Virus record (IMG/VR): IMGVR_UViG_3300020472_000024
Span: 1 to 62,754 of that record
DNA from: a virus
Taxonomy: Duplodnaviria > Caudoviricetes
Length of the DNA: 62,754 nucleotides
Direction: 5' to 3' (one strand)
A program made the position numbers and the translations under genes. The notes beneath the pieces are model-generated. The model saw only the letters and a list, made by a program, of their open reading frames with translations. It had not been told where the DNA came from and did not search any database. Shown in pieces: positions 33,625-41,152 of the stretch; positions within the stretch are counted from its first letter, which is position 1; every line of letters begins with the position of its first letter.

Positions 33625-34062
33625 CTAACTGATACCAGTTCCTGACATCATTTGCATTATAAACTTGAAGTTTTTAGATAAAATCCAACCTATAGCAATA
33701 AATCCACCTAGGATAATCCATCTGTATTTTTCTAGGACTCCTACTCTTCCACCTATATCATTTCGTAATGCTTTAATTTCAACTAATAATCTCTTTTCAA
33801 CTTGATCCATTTCTCTTTGTAGGTCTCTAAAAATTTCGTCTATTTCACTATCTCTATCTTTAATTTTTCTAAAGATAATGTCGTCAACTTGTTCTTGTCT
33901 TTGGATTTTTTCTTCGTGTACTGCTAACATTGACTTAATAGATGTGGATACATCTGTTAGTTTGTCTATTGCTGTGTCTAAACGACCTTGAATAGAATTA
34001 ACATTTTCTATTTCTTGTTTTAAGGTTGCTAGTTCAACTCTTATGTCTGTATTATCTGCCAT
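33625..34062 (-). CDS. coiled-coil protein with C-terminal membrane anchor
   Basis: Heptad-rich; LEKYRWIILGG TM at the C-terminus. Confidence 0.7.
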   Translation of the reverse strand: MADNTDIRVELATLKQEIENVNSIQGRLDTAIDKLTDVSTSIKSMLAVHEEKIQRQEQVDDIIFRKIKDRDSEIDEIFRDLQREMDQVEKRLLVEIKALRNDIGGRVGVLEKYRWIILGGFIAIGWILSKNFKFIMQMMSGTGIS

Positions 34063-34157: not shown

Positions 34158-35798
34158 TTATTTCTCTATCGTGTAAATGGTTACCTTGTTTGATTTACCC
34201 TTTACGGTTACCTCGTCTAATTTTTTGAAATTGTATAATGTAGATATATCTTTGTATGTGTCTTCTCCGACAACTAGTGTGGCGTCATAGTTTTTAGAAA
34301 CTCCCTCTAATCTACTTGCCAAGTTCACAGAATCACCGATAACAGAATAATCAAATCTTTGTTGACTACCCATATTACCTACAATACACTTTCCTGTATT
34401 GATTCCTATACCTATATTTATGACATTGTTATCTCCAAACCCATTCATATTATTTAAATATTTTAATTTATCTATCATTTCAAGTGCCGAAGTTATTGCT
34501 AACTCTTTGTGTTTCGGTGTGTCAATAGGTGCATTCCAAAATGCCATTATACAATCGCCCATATACTTATCAATTGTACCACTATTTCTCATAATAATAT
34601 CTGTCATAGGTGTTAAAAATCTATTAATAACTTTTGTTAATTCTGCAGGATTACTTTTATATTTTTCTGACAATGGTGTAAACCCTCTTATATCACAGAA
34701 TAAAAATGTTAGTTCTTTTGTTTCACCACCTAGTTTTAACAAGTCAGGATTCTGTTGTAGTTTCTTAACCATTTTAGGTTCAAGGTAATGTTCAAATTGT
34801 TTTTTAATTTGTAGTTTTAATCTATTCTCTCTTGCAAAGTTATTATATATTAAATGTGTCCATACAATAGTCATTGCAATTGCAATATAAGACCAGTCTG
34901 TAATTATCATTTTACTATGCCATAGATAAACAGAACCTATAGCAATATCAGCATATGCACCAAATAGTAATACTGCTGACCATAGTAAACCTACTCTAGG
35001 TATAATCAATACAAATGCAAGTAGACCTAATATAAATCCTATCCATTCTAATGTAGGCAACCAATCAGGTCTTTGAATAAACTTACCTGACAATAAAGTT
35101 TCAGTTGACATTGCCATTATATCGTGTGGATTTTTTAAACCGTTAGGTGTTAATACAAATGTTGAACCTGAAAATGTAGCACCTATGAATACAATTTTAC
35201 CTTTTACAGATGACCAATCTTTATCTGCGTGATCTATTCTAGGTATTTGATGTCTAAAATCTATCCATATATTATCTTGTTTAGGTATTTTAAATTTGAT
35301 AATCTTCAGTATTGTTTCAGGTACAGAATTTTCTAAAGGTAATTTTCTAATAGTACCATCTACATCTACTGGAACAAGAACATCACCTACACCTAATACT
35401 TTTCTTTTTATACTTTGTAGATTTTTTGCGTCTTTAGTTTCTGTTAAGATAACAGGATACTTTGAGATCATTTTCAAAAACATTTCATCACCACCTAATC
35501 TATCTTTATGTACAAAAACTACATTTAAGAAAACTAAAGCGGCACCATTTTGATATGCTTTAATAACAGCACGACCTAATTGATCTCTCTTCCACGGCCA
35601 TTGACCATATTTGTTTAGTGAATTATCTGATATGTCTATTAAGACTAGACTTTTTGATTTATAATTATTGCCAAACTTTTGATATAAGTCAAAGGTTTTT
35701 AATTGTAGGGTCTGTAAAGGTATTGGATTATATACTTTTAACGCCAATAATATAATCACACTTACCACTACTGCCCACGTGGAAGTAAACTTGTTCAT
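34158..35798 (-). CDS. CHASE2-domain class III adenylate cyclase
   Basis: N-terminal TM, CHASE2 motifs (IDIS..SL..YGQWPWKR, VDVDG.IR, GKIVFIG), 3 TMs, cyclase motifs LFCDIRGFT, IDKYMGDCIMA, DYSVIGDSVNLASRLE, VKGK. Confidence 0.93.
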   Translation of the reverse strand: MNKFTSTWAVVVSVIILLALKVYNPIPLQTLQLKTFDLYQKFGNNYKSKSLVLIDISDNSLNKYGQWPWKRDQLGRAVIKAYQNGAALVFLNVVFVHKDRLGGDEMFLKMISKYPVILTETKDAKNLQSIKRKVLGVGDVLVPVDVDGTIRKLPLENSVPETILKIIKFKIPKQDNIWIDFRHQIPRIDHADKDWSSVKGKIVFIGATFSGSTFVLTPNGLKNPHDIMAMSTETLLSGKFIQRPDWLPTLEWIGFILGLLAFVLIIPRVGLLWSAVLLFGAYADIAIGSVYLWHSKMIITDWSYIAIAMTIVWTHLIYNNFARENRLKLQIKKQFEHYLEPKMVKKLQQNPDLLKLGGETKELTFLFCDIRGFTPLSEKYKSNPAELTKVINRFLTPMTDIIMRNSGTIDKYMGDCIMAFWNAPIDTPKHKELAITSALEMIDKLKYLNNMNGFGDNNVINIGIGINTGKCIVGNMGSQQRFDYSVIGDSVNLASRLEGVSKNYDATLVVGEDTYKDISTLYNFKKLDEVTVKGKSNKVTIYTIEK

Positions 35799-35806
35799 AA
35801 GACTAT

Positions 35807-37957
35807 TTAGTCTGTCTGTATTATAGTGATATTGTTTTGACTTTCACTACTACCTACATCAAGGTGTTGTGCCTCTTTGTCTTGTAATATTTGTATGTCT
35901 GCTTCGTTTGCTGTTTCAGTTTTAACATATGATCTATGATTATCATTGTATCTATTAATTATAGTGTAATCACCTGAAGTTGAGGCAGTTGCGTCATAAT
36001 CATTATTTAATGTAGAGTATCTACCAGTTCTAGTTTCTGAAGATGAACCTGTAAGTTCATTTGTTGTAGTAATAGTTTGTGTAATTTCTCCAGTAGCGTA
36101 ATTTAATTCTTCACCACTAGCAGTTATTTCTGTTTCAGCAGCAGAATTATCTACCCATTCAGTACCACAAGATGAGTTTGCTTTATCCCAATAGTATCCA
36201 TAGTATTCACAATCCCATTGATTATCTACATCTGCTAACCATTGTTCTAGTTCAGCGTCTATATCGTAATCATCTTCGTAAGCATATTCATCTTCCCAAC
36301 TATCTTCCGCTTGTTCTTCTTCCCAACCTGCATACCACCAGTCATTTACTTTTGTCCAATAGATATCCCAATCGTCCCAAGTCCATTCTGAAATATACTT
36401 GTCTTTTAAATCTTTTATCTTCCAAGGTTTAGGTTGATCGGCACACATTTCCCAATCAGGATATGTTCCACACCAACCATAATATTTACCAAATAATTTT
36501 TTTGCTTCTTTAGTCCAAGAATCATAAGTTACTTTTAACTTCCAGTCATCTGCGTACCATTCATTTACCCAATCTAAATATTCCTGATTACACCAAGATA
36601 AATCATAACCATTATATTCACAATAGTTAGCAACCGTTAGTTCAGGTGGACCACCGTTATTATTATATTCTGCATTACTATAATAAGCGTCATCCATTGC
36701 AAAGTCTTCCCAAGTATAACCTGTCATACCTGCTTCTGTTTCATCTTTTGTTTCTTCAACTACGTCAACTGATTCTGTTTCTACATTCCAAGATGATAGA
36801 CCATACTTCTCTAGTGTTTCATTATATGCCTCATCATAAGCATCCCAATCAACTTCATCCCAATTTACTTCATCCCAATTAATAGTATCCCAAGTACAAT
36901 CTGAACAACCGATGGCGTCAAAGTATGCTTGATCCATTTCTGCATACATACTCTTTGCGTCATCCCAATCCATTTTCTTTTCACCATCAGCATCCCATAC
37001 TGATATTTCATTATTTTCATCTATAATATCCCACTCTTTTAAATCATCTTCCCATTGATCGTAATAAGAAGTATCAACTTCTGTTTCTACCGTTGCGTCT
37101 AAACCTTTTTCTTCTTTAGATTCTGTTTCAATCATTGAATCTGCTTCACTAACTGACATATCAGTAGCAACAATTGTATTATTATCTTCTACAACTGATA
37201 CATCTTCATTAATTAATGCCTCTTCCATATCTTGTGCCTTAGATTCTTCTTTAGACATTTCAGATTTTTTATCTATATCACCGAAAGATTTTGATGTATC
37301 TTCTTTAATTTCTTTTTCAAAATCTTCTAGTTCTATAATGTCTGATTTATTTGTTTCAATTTTAGGAGGTGTAGGTGTTAAATCGTTTGATGTAACTGAA
37401 ACTGAATTATAAACATTTGTAATTGTTTGAGAACCTGCTTCTGTTGATACCGTTACCTGTCCTACTGCACCATCACTATCTGGTAATAAAGTTATTGTTG
37501 CAACACCTGAAGTTTCTACCGTTGCTGAGAAAGCAGTACCTTGTACCGTTACCGTGGCAAATCCAGCATTAATATTTACCTCACCACCTAAATTAGATAC
37601 TGAACCTGATTCATAGGTAAAAGAACCTACATTAACGGTGACATTCATTGCTAATTCTATTGGTACTTTACTTGTATCAAAAGCAAATTGGTCAATTGAT
37701 TTTTCTGTATTAGGTCCCATTGTAAACTTTGTGCCATCTACATAACTTAATATCATACCACCATCTTCACCAGTTTGAAGAAAGTCTTTCATCTGCAACT
37801 CATAACCCATTATAACTTTTTCTGTTTGACCATCTCTTTCGTTATAAGTTGACCCCATTTGACCTGTAATTTCGCCAACTTTAGGACCTGTGATTTGAGA
37901 AAAAACACTAGTACAGAAAAGTACCAGAAATGATACTATGAAATAAAGACTTCTCAT
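35807..37957 (-). CDS. secreted FecR-domain protein with long acidic Trp-rich C-terminal region
   Basis: Signal peptide; FecR pattern D.LQTG.DG...L.Y.DGT...MGPNT...AT.TVQGTAF; D/E/W/Y-rich tail ending NNITIIQTD. Confidence 0.82.
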   Translation of the reverse strand: MRSLYFIVSFLVLFCTSVFSQITGPKVGEITGQMGSTYNERDGQTEKVIMGYELQMKDFLQTGEDGGMILSYVDGTKFTMGPNTEKSIDQFAFDTSKVPIELAMNVTVNVGSFTYESGSVSNLGGEVNINAGFATVTVQGTAFSATVETSGVATITLLPDSDGAVGQVTVSTEAGSQTITNVYNSVSVTSNDLTPTPPKIETNKSDIIELEDFEKEIKEDTSKSFGDIDKKSEMSKEESKAQDMEEALINEDVSVVEDNNTIVATDMSVSEADSMIETESKEEKGLDATVETEVDTSYYDQWEDDLKEWDIIDENNEISVWDADGEKKMDWDDAKSMYAEMDQAYFDAIGCSDCTWDTINWDEVNWDEVDWDAYDEAYNETLEKYGLSSWNVETESVDVVEETKDETEAGMTGYTWEDFAMDDAYYSNAEYNNNGGPPELTVANYCEYNGYDLSWCNQEYLDWVNEWYADDWKLKVTYDSWTKEAKKLFGKYYGWCGTYPDWEMCADQPKPWKIKDLKDKYISEWTWDDWDIYWTKVNDWWYAGWEEEQAEDSWEDEYAYEDDYDIDAELEQWLADVDNQWDCEYYGYYWDKANSSCGTEWVDNSAAETEITASGEELNYATGEITQTITTTNELTGSSSETRTGRYSTLNNDYDATASTSGDYTIINRYNDNHRSYVKTETANEADIQILQDKEAQHLDVGSSESQNNITIIQTD
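36841..36892 (-). repeat. 15-nt coding tandem repeat (W-D-x-V/I-N/D pentapeptides)
   Basis: Protein WDTINWDEVNWDEVDWD; repeated catcccaat/tatcccaag units. Confidence 0.7.
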
Positions 37958-37958
37958 T

Positions 37959-39047
37959 TTAACAACCTGAATTAGTTAACTGAACGGTTGTGTCTGCTGT
38001 TTGATCGTTTCTATTAAATGAATATGTGCAAGTATCAGAACCATCTTGGTCAACTAATAATGTATAATCATAAATTGAATCACCATTGACCGTTAGATGA
38101 GCAGTATTTGAACCGTTTAATTGTATTAACTCTACAATTGCACCACTTGTGTACAAGTAAACTTGAGCATTATTATTTCCACCATTTCCATAATATCTTA
38201 ATGTGTTACTATTACCACTTGTAACCGTTTTCATATAATTATTATCACCATACTGAACCATTCTTACGTGTGATCCAACTGCGTCTGGATGAACATCTAA
38301 AATATTTGAATCACCTATGACATCGTGGACTTGATAATTGTCAGCACCGTGGCTGGACATATGTACTTGATTTGAAGAACCAATTATATAAACATCTATT
38401 GTAGCACCTTCATCACCAGTTGTATCTGCAAATTGACCGTGACCTTCTACATTAGGACCAATCATCACATTTGCTTTACTAGCACCTACCATACCACTTG
38501 AATTAGTATTACCATAAAACTCTACATCATTTGAATTACCTGACATAAGAACATATAAGAAGTGTGAATCACCTCTAACATATGCCCAAAAATCATTTGA
38601 GTCTCCTCTTATATCTAAATCTATATGAGTATCTTGTATGTCATCACTTGTATGACCACTAATATCTACTATGTTTGAAGAACCTGTAACATCTATATCG
38701 TAATAATGACCATCAGCGTCTGTATCGCCTAAATCTAATCTTAATTTATTTGAATTACCTGTAGCAGTATAATCAAAGGTCATATTAGAACCTTTAAATT
38801 TCATATCGCCAGAGTCATCTGTTTCGTTTGAGTTACCTATTTGTTTAACTATGATAGTTAAATTGGGACCATCAATTACGAAAGGTGCTGATGTAGATAT
38901 ACCAAACTTATTTGTAGCACCGTCTTGTTTTATATAGACGGATCCTAATTTGTTTTGATTGTCTTGTTGGATATAAACGGAGTTACCAGCGAAAGTATTA
39001 CTTAATGTCGCTAGAAGAATCACTATCGCTATCATTATCTGTTTCAT
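37959..39047 (-). CDS. curlin-like (CsgA/CsgB-type) beta-solenoid repeat protein
   Basis: Signal peptide; many (Q/x)-x-G-x-x-N arcs with alternating hydrophobics (YIKQDGATN, VKQIGNSN, DVTGSSN, VQYGDNN); follows csgG. Confidence 0.75.
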   Translation of the reverse strand: MKQIMIAIVILLATLSNTFAGNSVYIQQDNQNKLGSVYIKQDGATNKFGISTSAPFVIDGPNLTIIVKQIGNSNETDDSGDMKFKGSNMTFDYTATGNSNKLRLDLGDTDADGHYYDIDVTGSSNIVDISGHTSDDIQDTHIDLDIRGDSNDFWAYVRGDSHFLYVLMSGNSNDVEFYGNTNSSGMVGASKANVMIGPNVEGHGQFADTTGDEGATIDVYIIGSSNQVHMSSHGADNYQVHDVIGDSNILDVHPDAVGSHVRMVQYGDNNYMKTVTSGNSNTLRYYGNGGNNNAQVYLYTSGAIVELIQLNGSNTAHLTVNGDSIYDYTLLVDQDGSDTCTYSFNRNDQTADTTVQLTNSGC

Positions 39048-40008
39048 CAGCATTCTCCTCCTGTTTTAATTCTTCTTTTAATTTTGCTTCTTCTTTAATT
39101 TGTTGTTTACGTTCTTCTTTTGCTCTTTCTTTTTCATCAATATAATCTTGGTAAGTCTTTTCTACTTTTTCTTCACCAATATCAACCGTAATATCAGTAT
39201 CAACATAGTCTTTTATTTCTGGTACTTCTACTTCTTTGATAGGTTCAAATTCCCATAGACCTTTGTCAACACCTAAATTGATAACATCAACTACACCTTT
39301 TTCAATTGCTTTTCTAACTGCAAGTGTAACTGGTTCGTTTCTAGCATAACCAGCTTCTACTTCAACTAACATTGTATCAGTATCAAAGTATTTAAATATG
39401 TCTGATCCTGTTGATGTAGAAAAAATAGTTTTCTCAACCGTTGTTGATAGTACAACTTCACCAGTCTGTACATTAATAACTCTTAATATAATAGTTACTA
39501 TGTCTTGTCTAAATTGTTTGTTTGCCTGAATACCTAATACTCTAGCACCAAAACCACCTGATTTAATATCTGAATCATAACCTACAATACCACCTGTGAT
39601 ATATGCACCAGCAAATAATAGTGGTGGTAAAGGTTCTGCACCCTCACCATTTACTTGTTGTCTTGTTGATCTAATTAATTTTCTTTCTTGTAATAAACTT
39701 GGAAGACTTGTTCTCTCTACAACTCTAAACCATTCACCATTACCTGCGTCTGCAAGTGCTTTAATTAATAATTGATATGATCCTTGAGTTACTGCCGTAC
39801 TCATTGACGCAAAAGAACCACCTGGTTTCTTTTGTCCTGTCATATCTATGAAATCGTAAACTGCAATTATAATAGGTTCACCTTTAGGTGATTCTATATT
39901 TGATAAATCTTTATAAGCAACCGTTTGTGTTCTTACATCAAACTTTGCTTTTCCAGCACAACCTACTAACAAAAAAGAAAGTAGGAATATTGATATGTAT
40001 TTTAACAT
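38998..40008 (-). CDS. csgG: curli secretion channel CsgG
   Basis: Lipobox LVGC; AVYDF.D.TGQ.KP, STAVTQG, WF.VVER..L..LLQER.LIR, GGIVGYDS, GYARNEPV. Confidence 0.93.
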   Translation of the reverse strand: MLKYISIFLLSFLLVGCAGKAKFDVRTQTVAYKDLSNIESPKGEPIIIAVYDFIDMTGQKKPGGSFASMSTAVTQGSYQLLIKALADAGNGEWFRVVERTSLPSLLQERKLIRSTRQQVNGEGAEPLPPLLFAGAYITGGIVGYDSDIKSGGFGARVLGIQANKQFRQDIVTIILRVINVQTGEVVLSTTVEKTIFSTSTGSDIFKYFDTDTMLVEVEAGYARNEPVTLAVRKAIEKGVVDVINLGVDKGLWEFEPIKEVEVPEIKDYVDTDITVDIGEEKVEKTYQDYIDEKERAKEERKQQIKEEAKLKEELKQEENADETDNDSDSDSSSDIK

Positions 40009-40475
40009 TACGTATTGTCCTCTTTAGGCATTGTAAATGTCGTTACGGTTCCGTCTGTTTCTGTAACGGTTACGGTTACATTACCTGTACCTGAAGGTGT
40101 TGCCCAAGTAACTACTTCACCACCTACTGGTGATGTAAATGTACCAGAGTCTTGTTGTAGACCATCAGTACCAAATACGTTATCTGTAATTTGTTTTGCA
40201 AGGGCAGTATAAAATCTTGCCTCTATATTTGACTTAAACTTAGCAATTGCTGTGTTTTTTGCTTCTGTTTCTGCTTTTTCTTTAGCAGCTTTTTCTGCTG
40301 CCTTGATAGCGTCTTTTCTAGTCTTCTCTATATTCTCAATTGTTAGATAGTGTGATGATTTTCCGTTACCAGAAAACGATGGACTACCAAACTTAAAGGT
40401 AAGTTCACTACCTTTTACTGATTGGATTGATAAAACTACTAAAATTGTTGCTAATGCTAGTGATAATTTTCCCAT
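40008..40475 (-). CDS. csgF: curli assembly component CsgF
   Basis: Signal peptide then SELTFKFGSPSFSGNG (CsgF N-terminal F..P.F.G motif); C-terminal VTETDGTVTTF. Confidence 0.88.
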   Translation of the reverse strand: MGKLSLALATILVVLSIQSVKGSELTFKFGSPSFSGNGKSSHYLTIENIEKTRKDAIKAAEKAAKEKAETEAKNTAIAKFKSNIEARFYTALAKQITDNVFGTDGLQQDSGTFTSPVGGEVVTWATPSGTGNVTVTVTETDGTVTTFTMPKEDNT

Positions 40476-40496
40476 AAATTTCTCTCTTTACAGGTA

Positions 40497-40504
40497 TATT
40501 TATA
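40497..40504 (-). promoter_or_regulatory. T4-type late promoter upstream of csgF
   Basis: TATAAATA 21 nt upstream of the csgF ATG. Confidence 0.75.
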
Positions 40505-40508
40505 AGAT

Positions 40509-40682
40509 TTACTTACTGAATTTGTCTGTTAATTTGTTGATTAGTTCAAAAGCGACTTTAATTTTTTCTTCTAAAACCTTAATTCGGTAATGTGCCTGCG
40601 CTAAGGTGACTATTAGTAATATAAATGCCACAAATATCGGCCATAATCTACTCAACATCAATACTGCGTCTGAAGCTTCCAT
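40509..40682 (-). CDS. small membrane protein (57 aa)
   Basis: Hand-translated MEASDAVLMLSRLWPIFVAFILLIVTLA... Confidence 0.6.
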   Translation of the reverse strand: MEASDAVLMLSRLWPIFVAFILLIVTLAQAHYRIKVLEEKIKVAFELINKLTDKFSK

Positions 40683-40687
40683 AATTA

Positions 40688-41152
40688 TTATTCGTATACT
40701 TTTTTTCTCTCGTATGCCTGCTCGTGTCTACCTGTAATCTCTAGTATTTCCCACTCGCCATTTTCTAATACTCTTACTTTTGCATTTACTTTATCACAAG
40801 TCATATTGTAAACACCGTCTTTAGTTTCACTTTCTTTATATTTTCTTTCTGCCTCTCTTTTATTTTTAAGGCAGTCCATTAAGTTTTCACTTGCAACGTG
40901 GTCAACTAGTTTTCTTTGTCCATCTTCTCCTAGTTCAAAGATACATACTGCAAATACAACACCGTCTTCAGGTGTAGATTCTGAAGTCTTGTGTTCTTCT
41001 TTCATAAAAGTTTTATGTGTATGTTTCTTTTCAATAGGACATACTTGGTGACCGTCATCGCCACAACCTGTGCAATCTGCAAATACAATACTAACACCAC
41101 CTATTAATATAATAAGTGAAAGTAATCCTGCTAATAGTAATCTTCCTTGCAT
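40688..41152 (-). CDS. secreted Cys-rich hypothetical protein
   Basis: Signal peptide; CTGC..HQVC; NLMDCLKNKREAER...TC motif. Confidence 0.7.
   Translation of the reverse strand: MQGRLLLAGLLSLIILIGGVSIVFADCTGCGDDGHQVCPIEKKHTHKTFMKEEHKTSESTPEDGVVFAVCIFELGEDGQRKLVDHVASENLMDCLKNKREAERKYKESETKDGVYNMTCDKVNAKVRVLENGEWEILEITGRHEQAYERKKVYE

Follow-up and report, generated by a model that had tools for sequence, protein, structure and literature searches.

Clusters that join a type VIII (curli) secretion system (T8SS) to a FecR gene and an adenylate cyclase gene have been described in myo- and podo-pelagiphages, with a histidine kinase as a further member of the cluster in the podophages (Wittmers et al. 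2022, PMC9599517). According to that paper the gene order is conserved, the clusters occur throughout the ocean and are expressed in metatranscriptomes, and their affinities are alphaproteobacterial. A curli cluster was also reported by Zaragoza-Solas et al. 2020 together with the idea of 'sibling capture', and a lysis-timing pore was proposed for the phage Melnitz (Buchholz et al. 2022, PMC9004378). According to these three papers, the known hosts are without curli genes. Here we analysed a 62.7-kb viral record, IMGVR_UViG_3300020472_000024 (62,754 nucleotides, about 40% complete, about 31% G+C and referred to in full length as the window), which carries on its minus strand at 34158-40504 five abutting or overlapping open reading frames (ORFs) in the order csgF, csgG, curlin-like, FecR-type and CHASE2 cyclase. 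This operon belongs to the pelagiphage-type curli module, which had already been described in 2022. The initial annotation of the window knew of no description linking phage curli genes to a cyclase, a statement that is withdrawn in view of that paper.

The same gene order, csgF-csgG-curlin-FecR-(...)-CHASE2 cyclase, was present in HTVC008M (KC465899), a Pelagibacter phage with an alphaproteobacterial host, and in Melnitz (MZ577097), a Methylophilales phage with a methylotrophic host of the OM43 clade. The annotations of the two genomes name CsgF, CsgG, a curlin-associated protein, a FecR domain protein, a curlin repeat protein and an adenylate/guanylate cyclase, and both phages, like the window, have no CsgE and a marine T4-like phage background. 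The window cyclase was 34-34.5% identical to theirs. The differences included the FecR-type protein, which in the window has 716 residues with a 500-residue acidic Cys/Trp-rich extension compared to about 370 residues in HTVC008M and Melnitz, and the second curlin-repeat gene between the FecR and cyclase genes, which is missing from the window. The 364-residue curlin-like protein of the window also had no match to the Pfam Curlin_rpt family, unlike its positional counterpart in Melnitz (26 bits, above the cut-off), and the close relatives of the window include a second arrangement, not that of HTVC008M and Melnitz, in which the cyclase is divergent from csgF. At the DNA level the phage collection gave no more than a 514-base match to HTVC008M (66.7% identity), and relatives were found at the protein level.

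Conservation and components of the phage module

Relatives in viral contigs were collected by a protein-pattern scan, which gave at least 600 stretches with a relative of the cyclase and 588 of 600 viral stretches with a relative of CsgG. The best-scoring 80 of each were analysed; the two sets of loci share contigs, and are therefore not independent, and they lean to this phage group. Thirty-two of the best 80 cyclase loci had at least 5 kb 5' of the cyclase, and csgG was located in 30, a FecR gene in 31 and csgF in 29 of these, the exceptions being the loci L037 and L059. All 25 csgG loci with enough flank among the best 80 carried csgF and FecR and 23 of them carried the cyclase, and a curlin-family subunit was present in 70 of the 80 csgG loci. 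Chance co-location of the five genes is excluded by these counts, and the comparison of gene content supports the view that they behave in phages as one conserved unit that selection maintains. A lack of co-conservation of the FecR and cyclase genes with csgF and csgG had been named beforehand as one result that would refute a link between them, and co-conservation was observed from both directions.

The orientation of the cyclase was scored in 37 csgG-bearing loci and was colinear in 26, as in the window, and divergent in 11. The 11 divergent loci were all close relatives of the window, and in them the cyclase is transcribed away from csgF, from which a very short spacer separates it. Since the cyclase was kept adjacent through an inversion, a functional tie is indicated, and the divergent arrangement also places the cyclase of some phages outside the late operon.

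Several loci differed from the common arrangement. The two csgG loci lacking a cyclase, L203 and L206, had none within approximately 8-9 kb, and L203 featured a 484-residue Laminin_G_3 (concanavalin-like lectin) protein directly 5' of csgF (L203:6996-8447) and a 617-residue curlin-like ORF after FecR. Two adjacent CHASE2-cyclase genes in opposite orientation were located beside csgF at L019:1190-4381 and in L177, which represents the same contig. A 239-residue cyclic-nucleotide-binding (cNMP-binding) protein (L238:513-1229, minus strand; Pfam E 7.9e-18) adjoined the csgF of a full cluster in divergent orientation and was the only cNMP-binding gene beside csgF among the best 80 csgG loci.

The features of the window are listed in Table 1.

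Table 1. Genes, domains and motif of the curli operon in the window, in the direction of transcription
Feature	Position (nt)	Strand	Description
TATAAATA	40497..40504	-	T4-type late-promoter-like motif, 21 nt 5' of the csgF ATG
csgF, secreted CsgF homologue, predicted T8SS pore-associated factor	40008..40475	-	155 aa; Pfam PF10614
csgG, predicted outer-membrane lipoprotein pore subunit	38998..40008	-	336 aa; Pfam PF03783
Curlin-family fibre subunit candidate	37959..39053	-	364 aa; signal peptide, G-x-[STDN]-N motifs, C-terminal Cys pair
Secreted FecR/RIN-type protein	35807..37957	-	716 aa; signal peptide, beta-sandwich N-domain, acidic middle, Thr/Ser tail
FecR/RIN-type N-domain	~37358-37885	-	residues ~25-200; beta-sandwich
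Inner-membrane CHASE2 sensor and class III adenylate cyclase	34158..35798	-	546 aa; PF05226, PF00211
CHASE2 domain	35013-35759	-	residues 14-262; PF05226 E 2e-27
Cyclase domain	~34164-34721	-	Guanylate_cyc PF00211 E 8e-25

Both proteins of the pore were identified as named in the initial annotation. CsgF matched its Pfam family at E 5.3e-13 (49.7 bits, cut-off 25.8) and phrog_35372 at E 3.6e-33 and begins with a hydrophobic segment (Kyte-Doolittle value, KD, 1.75), and a phmmer comparison of CsgF with the PDB gave no meaningful match. CsgG matched Pfam at E 1.1e-50 and, over residues 5-256, the E. coli CsgG structure 3x2r at E 6e-50, and the Cys17 of its lipobox (LVGC) was invariant in 11 relatives. 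As in the curli systems of E. coli and Salmonella (CsgBAC-CsgDEFG), the window thus combines a lipoprotein CsgG homologue and CsgF with a repeat-rich secreted subunit, whereas it adds the FecR-type and cyclase genes and differs from E. coli at the constriction loop, in the residues which we take to line the E. coli constriction. CsgG of the window also has an 80-residue Glu/Lys/Asp-rich C-terminal tail not in E. coli CsgG (residues 257-336, nt 38998-39240), which varies in length among relatives and whose end is overlapped by the start of the curlin gene by 56 nt. CsgE (PF10627), the usual gate of the curli pore, was absent from the five phage records searched and was detected in the E. coli control, and the ORFs scanned included no CsgC or CsgD.

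The designation of the 364-residue protein as curlin-like was retained in part. A profile-profile comparison by hhalign connected it to the HTVC008M-type curlin proteins at the same operon position with a probability of 99.3% (E 7.2e-21), and no Pfam Curlin_rpt match was obtained for the window protein; two members of the comparison set that were scanned with Pfam scored 19.3-19.4 bits, just under the cut-off of 20.7. Its G-x-[STDN]-N motifs were spaced mostly by 11, 22 and 25-28 residues with outliers of 9 and 44. The AlphaFold2 model was an all-beta repeat (pLDDT 70.5, pTM 0.73) for which Foldseek found no PDB entry at E <= 0.001 and only weak matches to generic beta-helix proteins, and the model therefore offers no specific support for a CsgA fold. 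In HTVC008M a 'hypothetical protein' encoded after the FecR gene and before the cyclase (AGE60352; L001:7583-8908) matched PA14 at E 2.7e-6 and curlin repeats at E 5.2e-8 and is, as predicted from these domains, a curlin-anchored binding domain of the PA14 lectin type.

The CHASE2 and class III cyclase domains proposed initially were recovered by HMM (Table 1). The cyclase also matched phrog_35576 (E 1.8e-124) and Pseudomonas aeruginosa CyaB (3r5g, E 2.2e-33), and a transmembrane segment at residues 4-22 and a transmembrane cluster at 253-290 flank the CHASE2 domain; a possible fourth segment at about 301-318 is our own reading and lies under the prediction threshold. Residues D369, K411, D415, N492 and R496 were invariant in 30 relatives and aligned with CyaB 3r5g. 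The two metal-binding Asp, the substrate Lys and the transition-state Asn and Arg are therefore kept, as had been claimed, and the protein is predicted to be a class III adenylate cyclase with an intact catalytic site. The adenine-specifying role given to the Asp of FDY was probably mis-assigned, the relevant residue being Ser485 of 'FDYS', which aligns with the Thr in the CyaB and OaPAC motif 'DYT', a position at which we take Thr or Ser to be the class IIIb base-specificity residue.

The other signal, lipobox and transmembrane segments of the initial annotation were likewise recovered, with hydrophobic N-terminal segments in the CsgF, curlin-like and FecR-like proteins, the LVGC of CsgG and the segments of the cyclase. 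These envelope-targeting signals, and the absence of virion features, suggest host-envelope rather than virion proteins.

The FecR-type protein and its bacterial relatives

The 716-residue protein of the window itself matched Pfam FecR at 15.1 bits (E 0.032), under the 24-bit cut-off. A PF04773 match at E <= 0.1 was obtained for 25 of the 30 aligned relatives (best E 1.2e-12), and the window protein matched phrog_37870 at E 3.4e-18. An AlphaFold2 model of residues 1-210 (pLDDT 85.6, pTM 0.77) was compared to known structures with Foldseek and the N-domain resembled 4m0h, a FecR-type anti-sigma protein (E 5.7e-5, TM-score 0.53), 6ovk, the PupR cell-surface signalling domain (E 2.6e-3, TM-score 0.52), and 5ix9, known as RIN (E 9.2e-4, TM-score 0.77 of the target, rmsd 1.0 over 63 columns), the last of which was also matched by the phage FecR profile (E 1.6e-4). 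The FecR identity given initially is therefore sound by way of the relatives and the predicted fold, and not by the protein's own Pfam match. As modelled, the N-domain resembles both the periplasmic domains of the anti-sigma FecR/PupR proteins and RIN, and the predicted fold is that of periplasmic domains contacting outer-membrane proteins (PupR 6ovk, anti-sigma 4m0h), in agreement with the relay role from which the initial annotation had argued. RIN is the N-terminal domain of MpIBP, an RTX adhesin of Marinomonas, and folds as a beta-sandwich in the periplasm; it has been described as too large to pass TolC and proposed to act as a plug that tethers the adhesin to the cell (PMC5550230).

In the alignment of 30, all T8SS-linked phage FecR-type proteins had signal-peptide-like N-termini (KD 2.04 in the window), and in the window protein the FecR domain follows this segment directly. 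The window protein thus shares with the FecR/PupR anti-sigma regulators the periplasmic domain fold and, in its relatives, the Pfam FecR match, whereas it has neither the transmembrane anchor nor the cytoplasmic anti-sigma domain of these regulators. No gene for an extracytoplasmic function (ECF) sigma factor or a TonB-dependent transducer was located in the five-gene cluster, the rest of the record not having been searched for sigma factors. Residues 211-600 are acidic and rich in Trp, Tyr and Cys, with a net charge of -85, and eight Cys of this middle part were conserved in the alignment. A search of the ESM Atlas with residues 330-716 gave no usable match. The C-terminus is a Thr/Ser-rich tail ending in ITIIQ (window 35810-35830), a sequence that was near-invariant in the 30 proteins, the short distant HTVC008M-type proteins included, where the preceding regions were unalignable.

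Cellular relatives were sought in one genome per prokaryotic species using the alignment of phage cyclases, and the flanks of the best 80 were scanned with HMMs of the phage proteins. The record titles of these 80 loci were mostly alphaproteobacterial. A FecR-like ORF was located within 10 kb of the cyclase in 34 loci, and relatives of csgG, csgF or curlin were in the flanks of none of the 80. Genes for HlyD and an ABC transporter, indicative of type I secretion (T1SS), were within 8 kb of the cyclase in 27 loci, 13 of which also had FecR, and cNMP-binding ORFs were near the cyclase in 10 of the 80. The bacterial FecR proteins were approximately 900-2100 residues long with RTX, cadherin-like, Big_9 or FG-GAP repeats identified by Pfam. 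A hydrophobic N-terminal segment was present in 0 of the 13 FecR ORFs adjacent to a T1SS compared to 8 of 19 others (Fisher p 0.010; two ORFs truncated at contig ends were excluded). Substrates of a T1SS need no Sec signal and those of a T8SS must have a signal peptide. As the N-terminal segment matches the system in each setting, absent beside the T1SS and present beside the T8SS, the FecR-type protein resembles a substrate of whichever secretion system is encoded next to it.

The comparison of the loci strongly supports a bacterial origin of the phage FecR/cyclase pair, in a mostly alphaproteobacterial module from which phages would have re-coupled the pair to the T8SS. Bacterial neighbours of this kind are on record, with FecR beside CHASE2 histidine kinases in Burkholderia and Pseudomonas and, in Campylobacterota, beside a CHASE2 cyclase, a phosphodiesterase and a TPR protein. 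In Sinorhizobium meliloti cyaD1 adjoins SMc02177 (PMC5498481) and the CHASE2 cyclases respond via the outer-membrane beta-barrel NsrA (PMC13001267). Together, these bacterial modules have the same cyclase architecture as the phage and comprise its closest cellular relatives, whereas the partner export system is type I (HlyD and ABC, sometimes with TolC) in 27 of the 80 and curli in none, and the T1SS-linked FecR proteins are giant and lack signal peptides in contrast to the predicted Sec export of the phage protein. The phage protein likewise resembles the retention module of RTX adhesins (RIN; LapA-type anchoring) in having the domain at the N-terminus of a secreted protein encoded beside its secretion system, and differs in being predicted to be Sec-exported and in its pairing with CsgG rather than TolC, retention at the pore being the presumed part of the likeness.

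Two kinds of loci are highlighted for their T1SS genes. A marine alphaproteobacterial single-cell genome (L116:3517-20988) encoded a TolC-like outer-membrane efflux protein (OEP), an ABC transporter with C39, a HlyD fused to an N-terminal cNMP-binding domain and then the CHASE2 cyclase, followed by a 147-residue cNMP-binding protein and further on by HlyD, ABC and a FecR-RTX protein. This suggests that cAMP may act directly on the type I secretion machine in L116. One of the two exceptional viral cyclase loci, L037:519-9932, had no csg genes and the order of a 1299-residue FecR and cadherin protein without a signal peptide (KD 0.22), a TolC-like OEP (578 residues), an ABC-membrane-like ORF, a HlyD-like ORF and the CHASE2 cyclase. 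Its viral status is the collection's own classification together with few PHROG matches, and the ABC-like (250 residues) and HlyD-like (241 residues) ORFs are short and may be fragments. HlyD-like matches were also located 5' of the cyclase in L040, L042, L048 and L081.

A published link of CHASE2 or FecR with type I secretion, an RTX adhesin or a retention module was not among the matches listed in the literature search, which does not establish its absence from print. The T1SS context and the resemblance to an adhesin plug are therefore presented as leads that were not found in the literature searched, and the long FecR form, the divergent arrangement or the bacterial contexts may have been presented before in PMC9599517 (Fig. 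S3, Data Set S1). Relative to the 2022 description, what is added here is the bacterial type I secretion context of the FecR-cyclase pair and the RIN resemblance.

Proposed mechanism and alternative explanations

The explanation that we tentatively prefer overall is that of the published curli module in which a FecR-type protein at the pore reports to the cyclase. Late in infection the CsgG/CsgF pore, the curlin-family subunit, the periplasm-exported FecR-type protein and the CHASE2 cyclase would reach the cell. The FecR-type protein would be the secretion system's own pore-associated cargo or adaptor, with its folded N-domain staying in the periplasm at the CsgG pore much like RIN under TolC. 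CHASE2 would read the state of this domain, whether the pore is occupied, the fibre assembled or the fibre pulled, and the infected cell would thus answer fibre export or surface events with cAMP. Its receptors would mostly be those of the host, as these phages rarely carry one. Superinfection or cell contact as the signal, and lysis timing or clumping as the outcome, as envisaged in the initial annotation, are conjectural. The mechanistic part of this explanation, in which a pore-associated FecR-type protein is read by CHASE2, is plausible to a limited degree and somewhat doubtful.

Several results weigh against the preferred explanation. The 5ix9 match spans 63-78 residues, which is part of the phage domain, and the anti-sigma folds match better, so that calling it a 'plug' is one interpretation of a fold common to both. 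The Cys-rich middle of the protein may fold in the periplasm before export, contrary to a narrow threading through CsgG. The tail of the FecR-type protein was considered as a curlin repeat and rejected, as an hhalign comparison of the last 116 residues with the curlin alignment gave a probability of 0.4%, and the 364-residue protein is tied to the curlin proteins indirectly, by the profile-profile comparison only. Two of the 25 csgG loci had no cyclase, PMC9599517 states that FecR and cyclase are not always present in viral T8SS, and in 46 of the 80 bacterial loci the 10 kb around the cyclase yielded no FecR ORF. Cultures infected with Melnitz showed no clumping (PMC9004378). A cNMP-binding domain was found in none of the five phage records searched, one of them 100% complete, and the cAMP output must therefore usually pass through host proteins. 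Contact of the FecR N-domain with CHASE2 or CsgG is hypothetical; complex predictions of CHASE2 (residues 25-246) with the FecR N-domain (residues 21-200) from 30-row alignments scored 0.00 twice, were made without controls and count neither for nor against binding.

The regulatory role proposed by Wittmers et al. 2022 (PMC9599517), in which both act on the viral T8SS or on host physiology with no physical link to the pore, FecR by detecting a ligand in the periplasm, for example an iron compound, and the cyclase by independently raising cAMP to alter host or phage gene expression and with it curli production, is somewhat unlikely. FecR-family folds are classical periplasmic sensor and relay domains, as represented by 4m0h and 6ovk, and the divergent cyclase in 11 of 37 loci, together with the lack of an own TATAAATA in 108 of 109 cyclase genes, would allow separate timing. 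The missing anti-sigma part and transmembrane anchor of the phage protein are difficult to reconcile with this role (no search for a FecI-type sigma factor or FecA-type transducer was made), the 500-residue acidic C-terminal part and the giant RTX and cadherin relatives are unlike regulators, and a transcription factor or cNMP receptor was found in none of the five phage records.

A more general version of the preferred explanation would be a secretion-coupled module in which the N-domain of a fibre or adhesin is retained at TolC in bacteria or at CsgG in phages and is read by CHASE2 to give cAMP, by which the cell or the phage inside it would sense if its fibre is displayed, loaded or pulled. 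Phages would then have swapped the T1SS for the T8SS and kept the sensor pair. As a statement about both bacteria and phages this is unlikely.

It is improbable that the operon encodes a plain surface fibre or adhesin that clumps or coats cells, for 'sibling capture' or as a superinfection shield, with the cyclase as a passenger of the FecR gene; a fibre role was proposed by Zaragoza-Solas et al. 2020 and in PMC9599517. The conserved curlin-family subunit and the lectin-type PA14 and Laminin_G_3 domains in or beside the cluster of relatives would fit a fibre. A passenger cyclase, on the other hand, would not persist in 23 of 25 loci and return to the side of the cluster after an inversion, nor would its catalytic residues be expected to be invariant in 30 relatives.

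Very unlikely is the lysis-timing function suggested for Melnitz in PMC9004378, in which CsgG/CsgF would form a gated outer-membrane hole that helps to time or carry out lysis, with cAMP as the timer or gate signal, for it leaves unexplained the curlin-family subunit, the PA14 domain on the HTVC008M curlin protein and the FecR-type protein, and a pore confined to the outer membrane leaves the inner membrane polarised, although the unclumped Melnitz cultures, the late-type promoter motif, the absence of CsgE from five of five phage records, the constriction loop unlike that of E. coli and the small membrane proteins encoded upstream, one with a weak holin match (see below), are in its favour.

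Operon layout, flanking genes and occurrence

The five genes were present and tightly packed as initially annotated, with intergenic gaps of -1, -56, +1 and +8 nt along the operon, and four of the five proteins matched PHROG families. Minus-strand ORFs cover approximately 97% of the whole window. The initial annotation had also placed the five genes behind one late promoter, which is consistent with the window and does not extend to the whole family, given the 11 divergent cyclases among 37 loci and the presence of an own TATAAATA in 1 of 109 cyclase genes. The motif TATAAATA occurred 10 times in the window compared to 17.3 times expected from shuffles and was not enriched, and its copy number was dropped as promoter evidence. 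All 10 copies were on the coding (minus) strand, and five of the nine copies examined were in short spacers 1-59 nt 5' of an ATG. In 33 of 93 distinct relatives the motif was located 13-33 nt 5' of the first in-frame ATG of the csgF ORF, the background frequency being 0.0086 per 100 nt on each strand; these ORFs were taken from stop to stop, and the first in-frame ATG is not necessarily the true start. Only the strand bias and the positional conservation, and not the number of copies, count as evidence for the motif.

The operon is followed at 33625-34062 (minus strand) by a DUF7201 coiled-coil protein with a hydrophobic C-terminal end and is preceded at 40509-41152 (minus strand) by a 57-residue membrane protein and a 154-residue secreted protein. 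The 57-residue protein had a weak match to the BhlA holin (E 0.014), below the cut-off. Relatives of these three proteins accompany the cluster in close relatives with both gene arrangements.

Fourteen public marine DNA runs, contributed by at least eight studies, contained near-identical sequence of the operon, with half or more of the sampled words. Contigs from RNA libraries (four runs, two studies) covered parts of csgF, csgG and the FecR gene at 95-100% identity and the curlin and cyclase genes sparsely; such libraries may contain DNA, the contigs cannot rank genes and uncovered stretches are meaningless. These contigs are compatible with the expression reported in PMC9599517 and are not proof of transcription.

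Phages of this kind have been reported to infect some of the most abundant marine bacteria (PMC7029224, PMC9599517). As predicted from its genes, the operon would equip infected cells with a secretion system of the outer membrane and with a source of cAMP. The T1SS/RTX context and the adhesin-plug resemblance turn a 'mysterious cluster' into a hypothesis that can be tested at the bench, and these links may bear on what CHASE2 senses in bacteria, the signal of which was called unknown in a 2016 paper. If the more general, secretion-coupled version is true, infected SAR11-type cells would gain a trans-envelope sensor of touch or occupancy that the host itself lacks.

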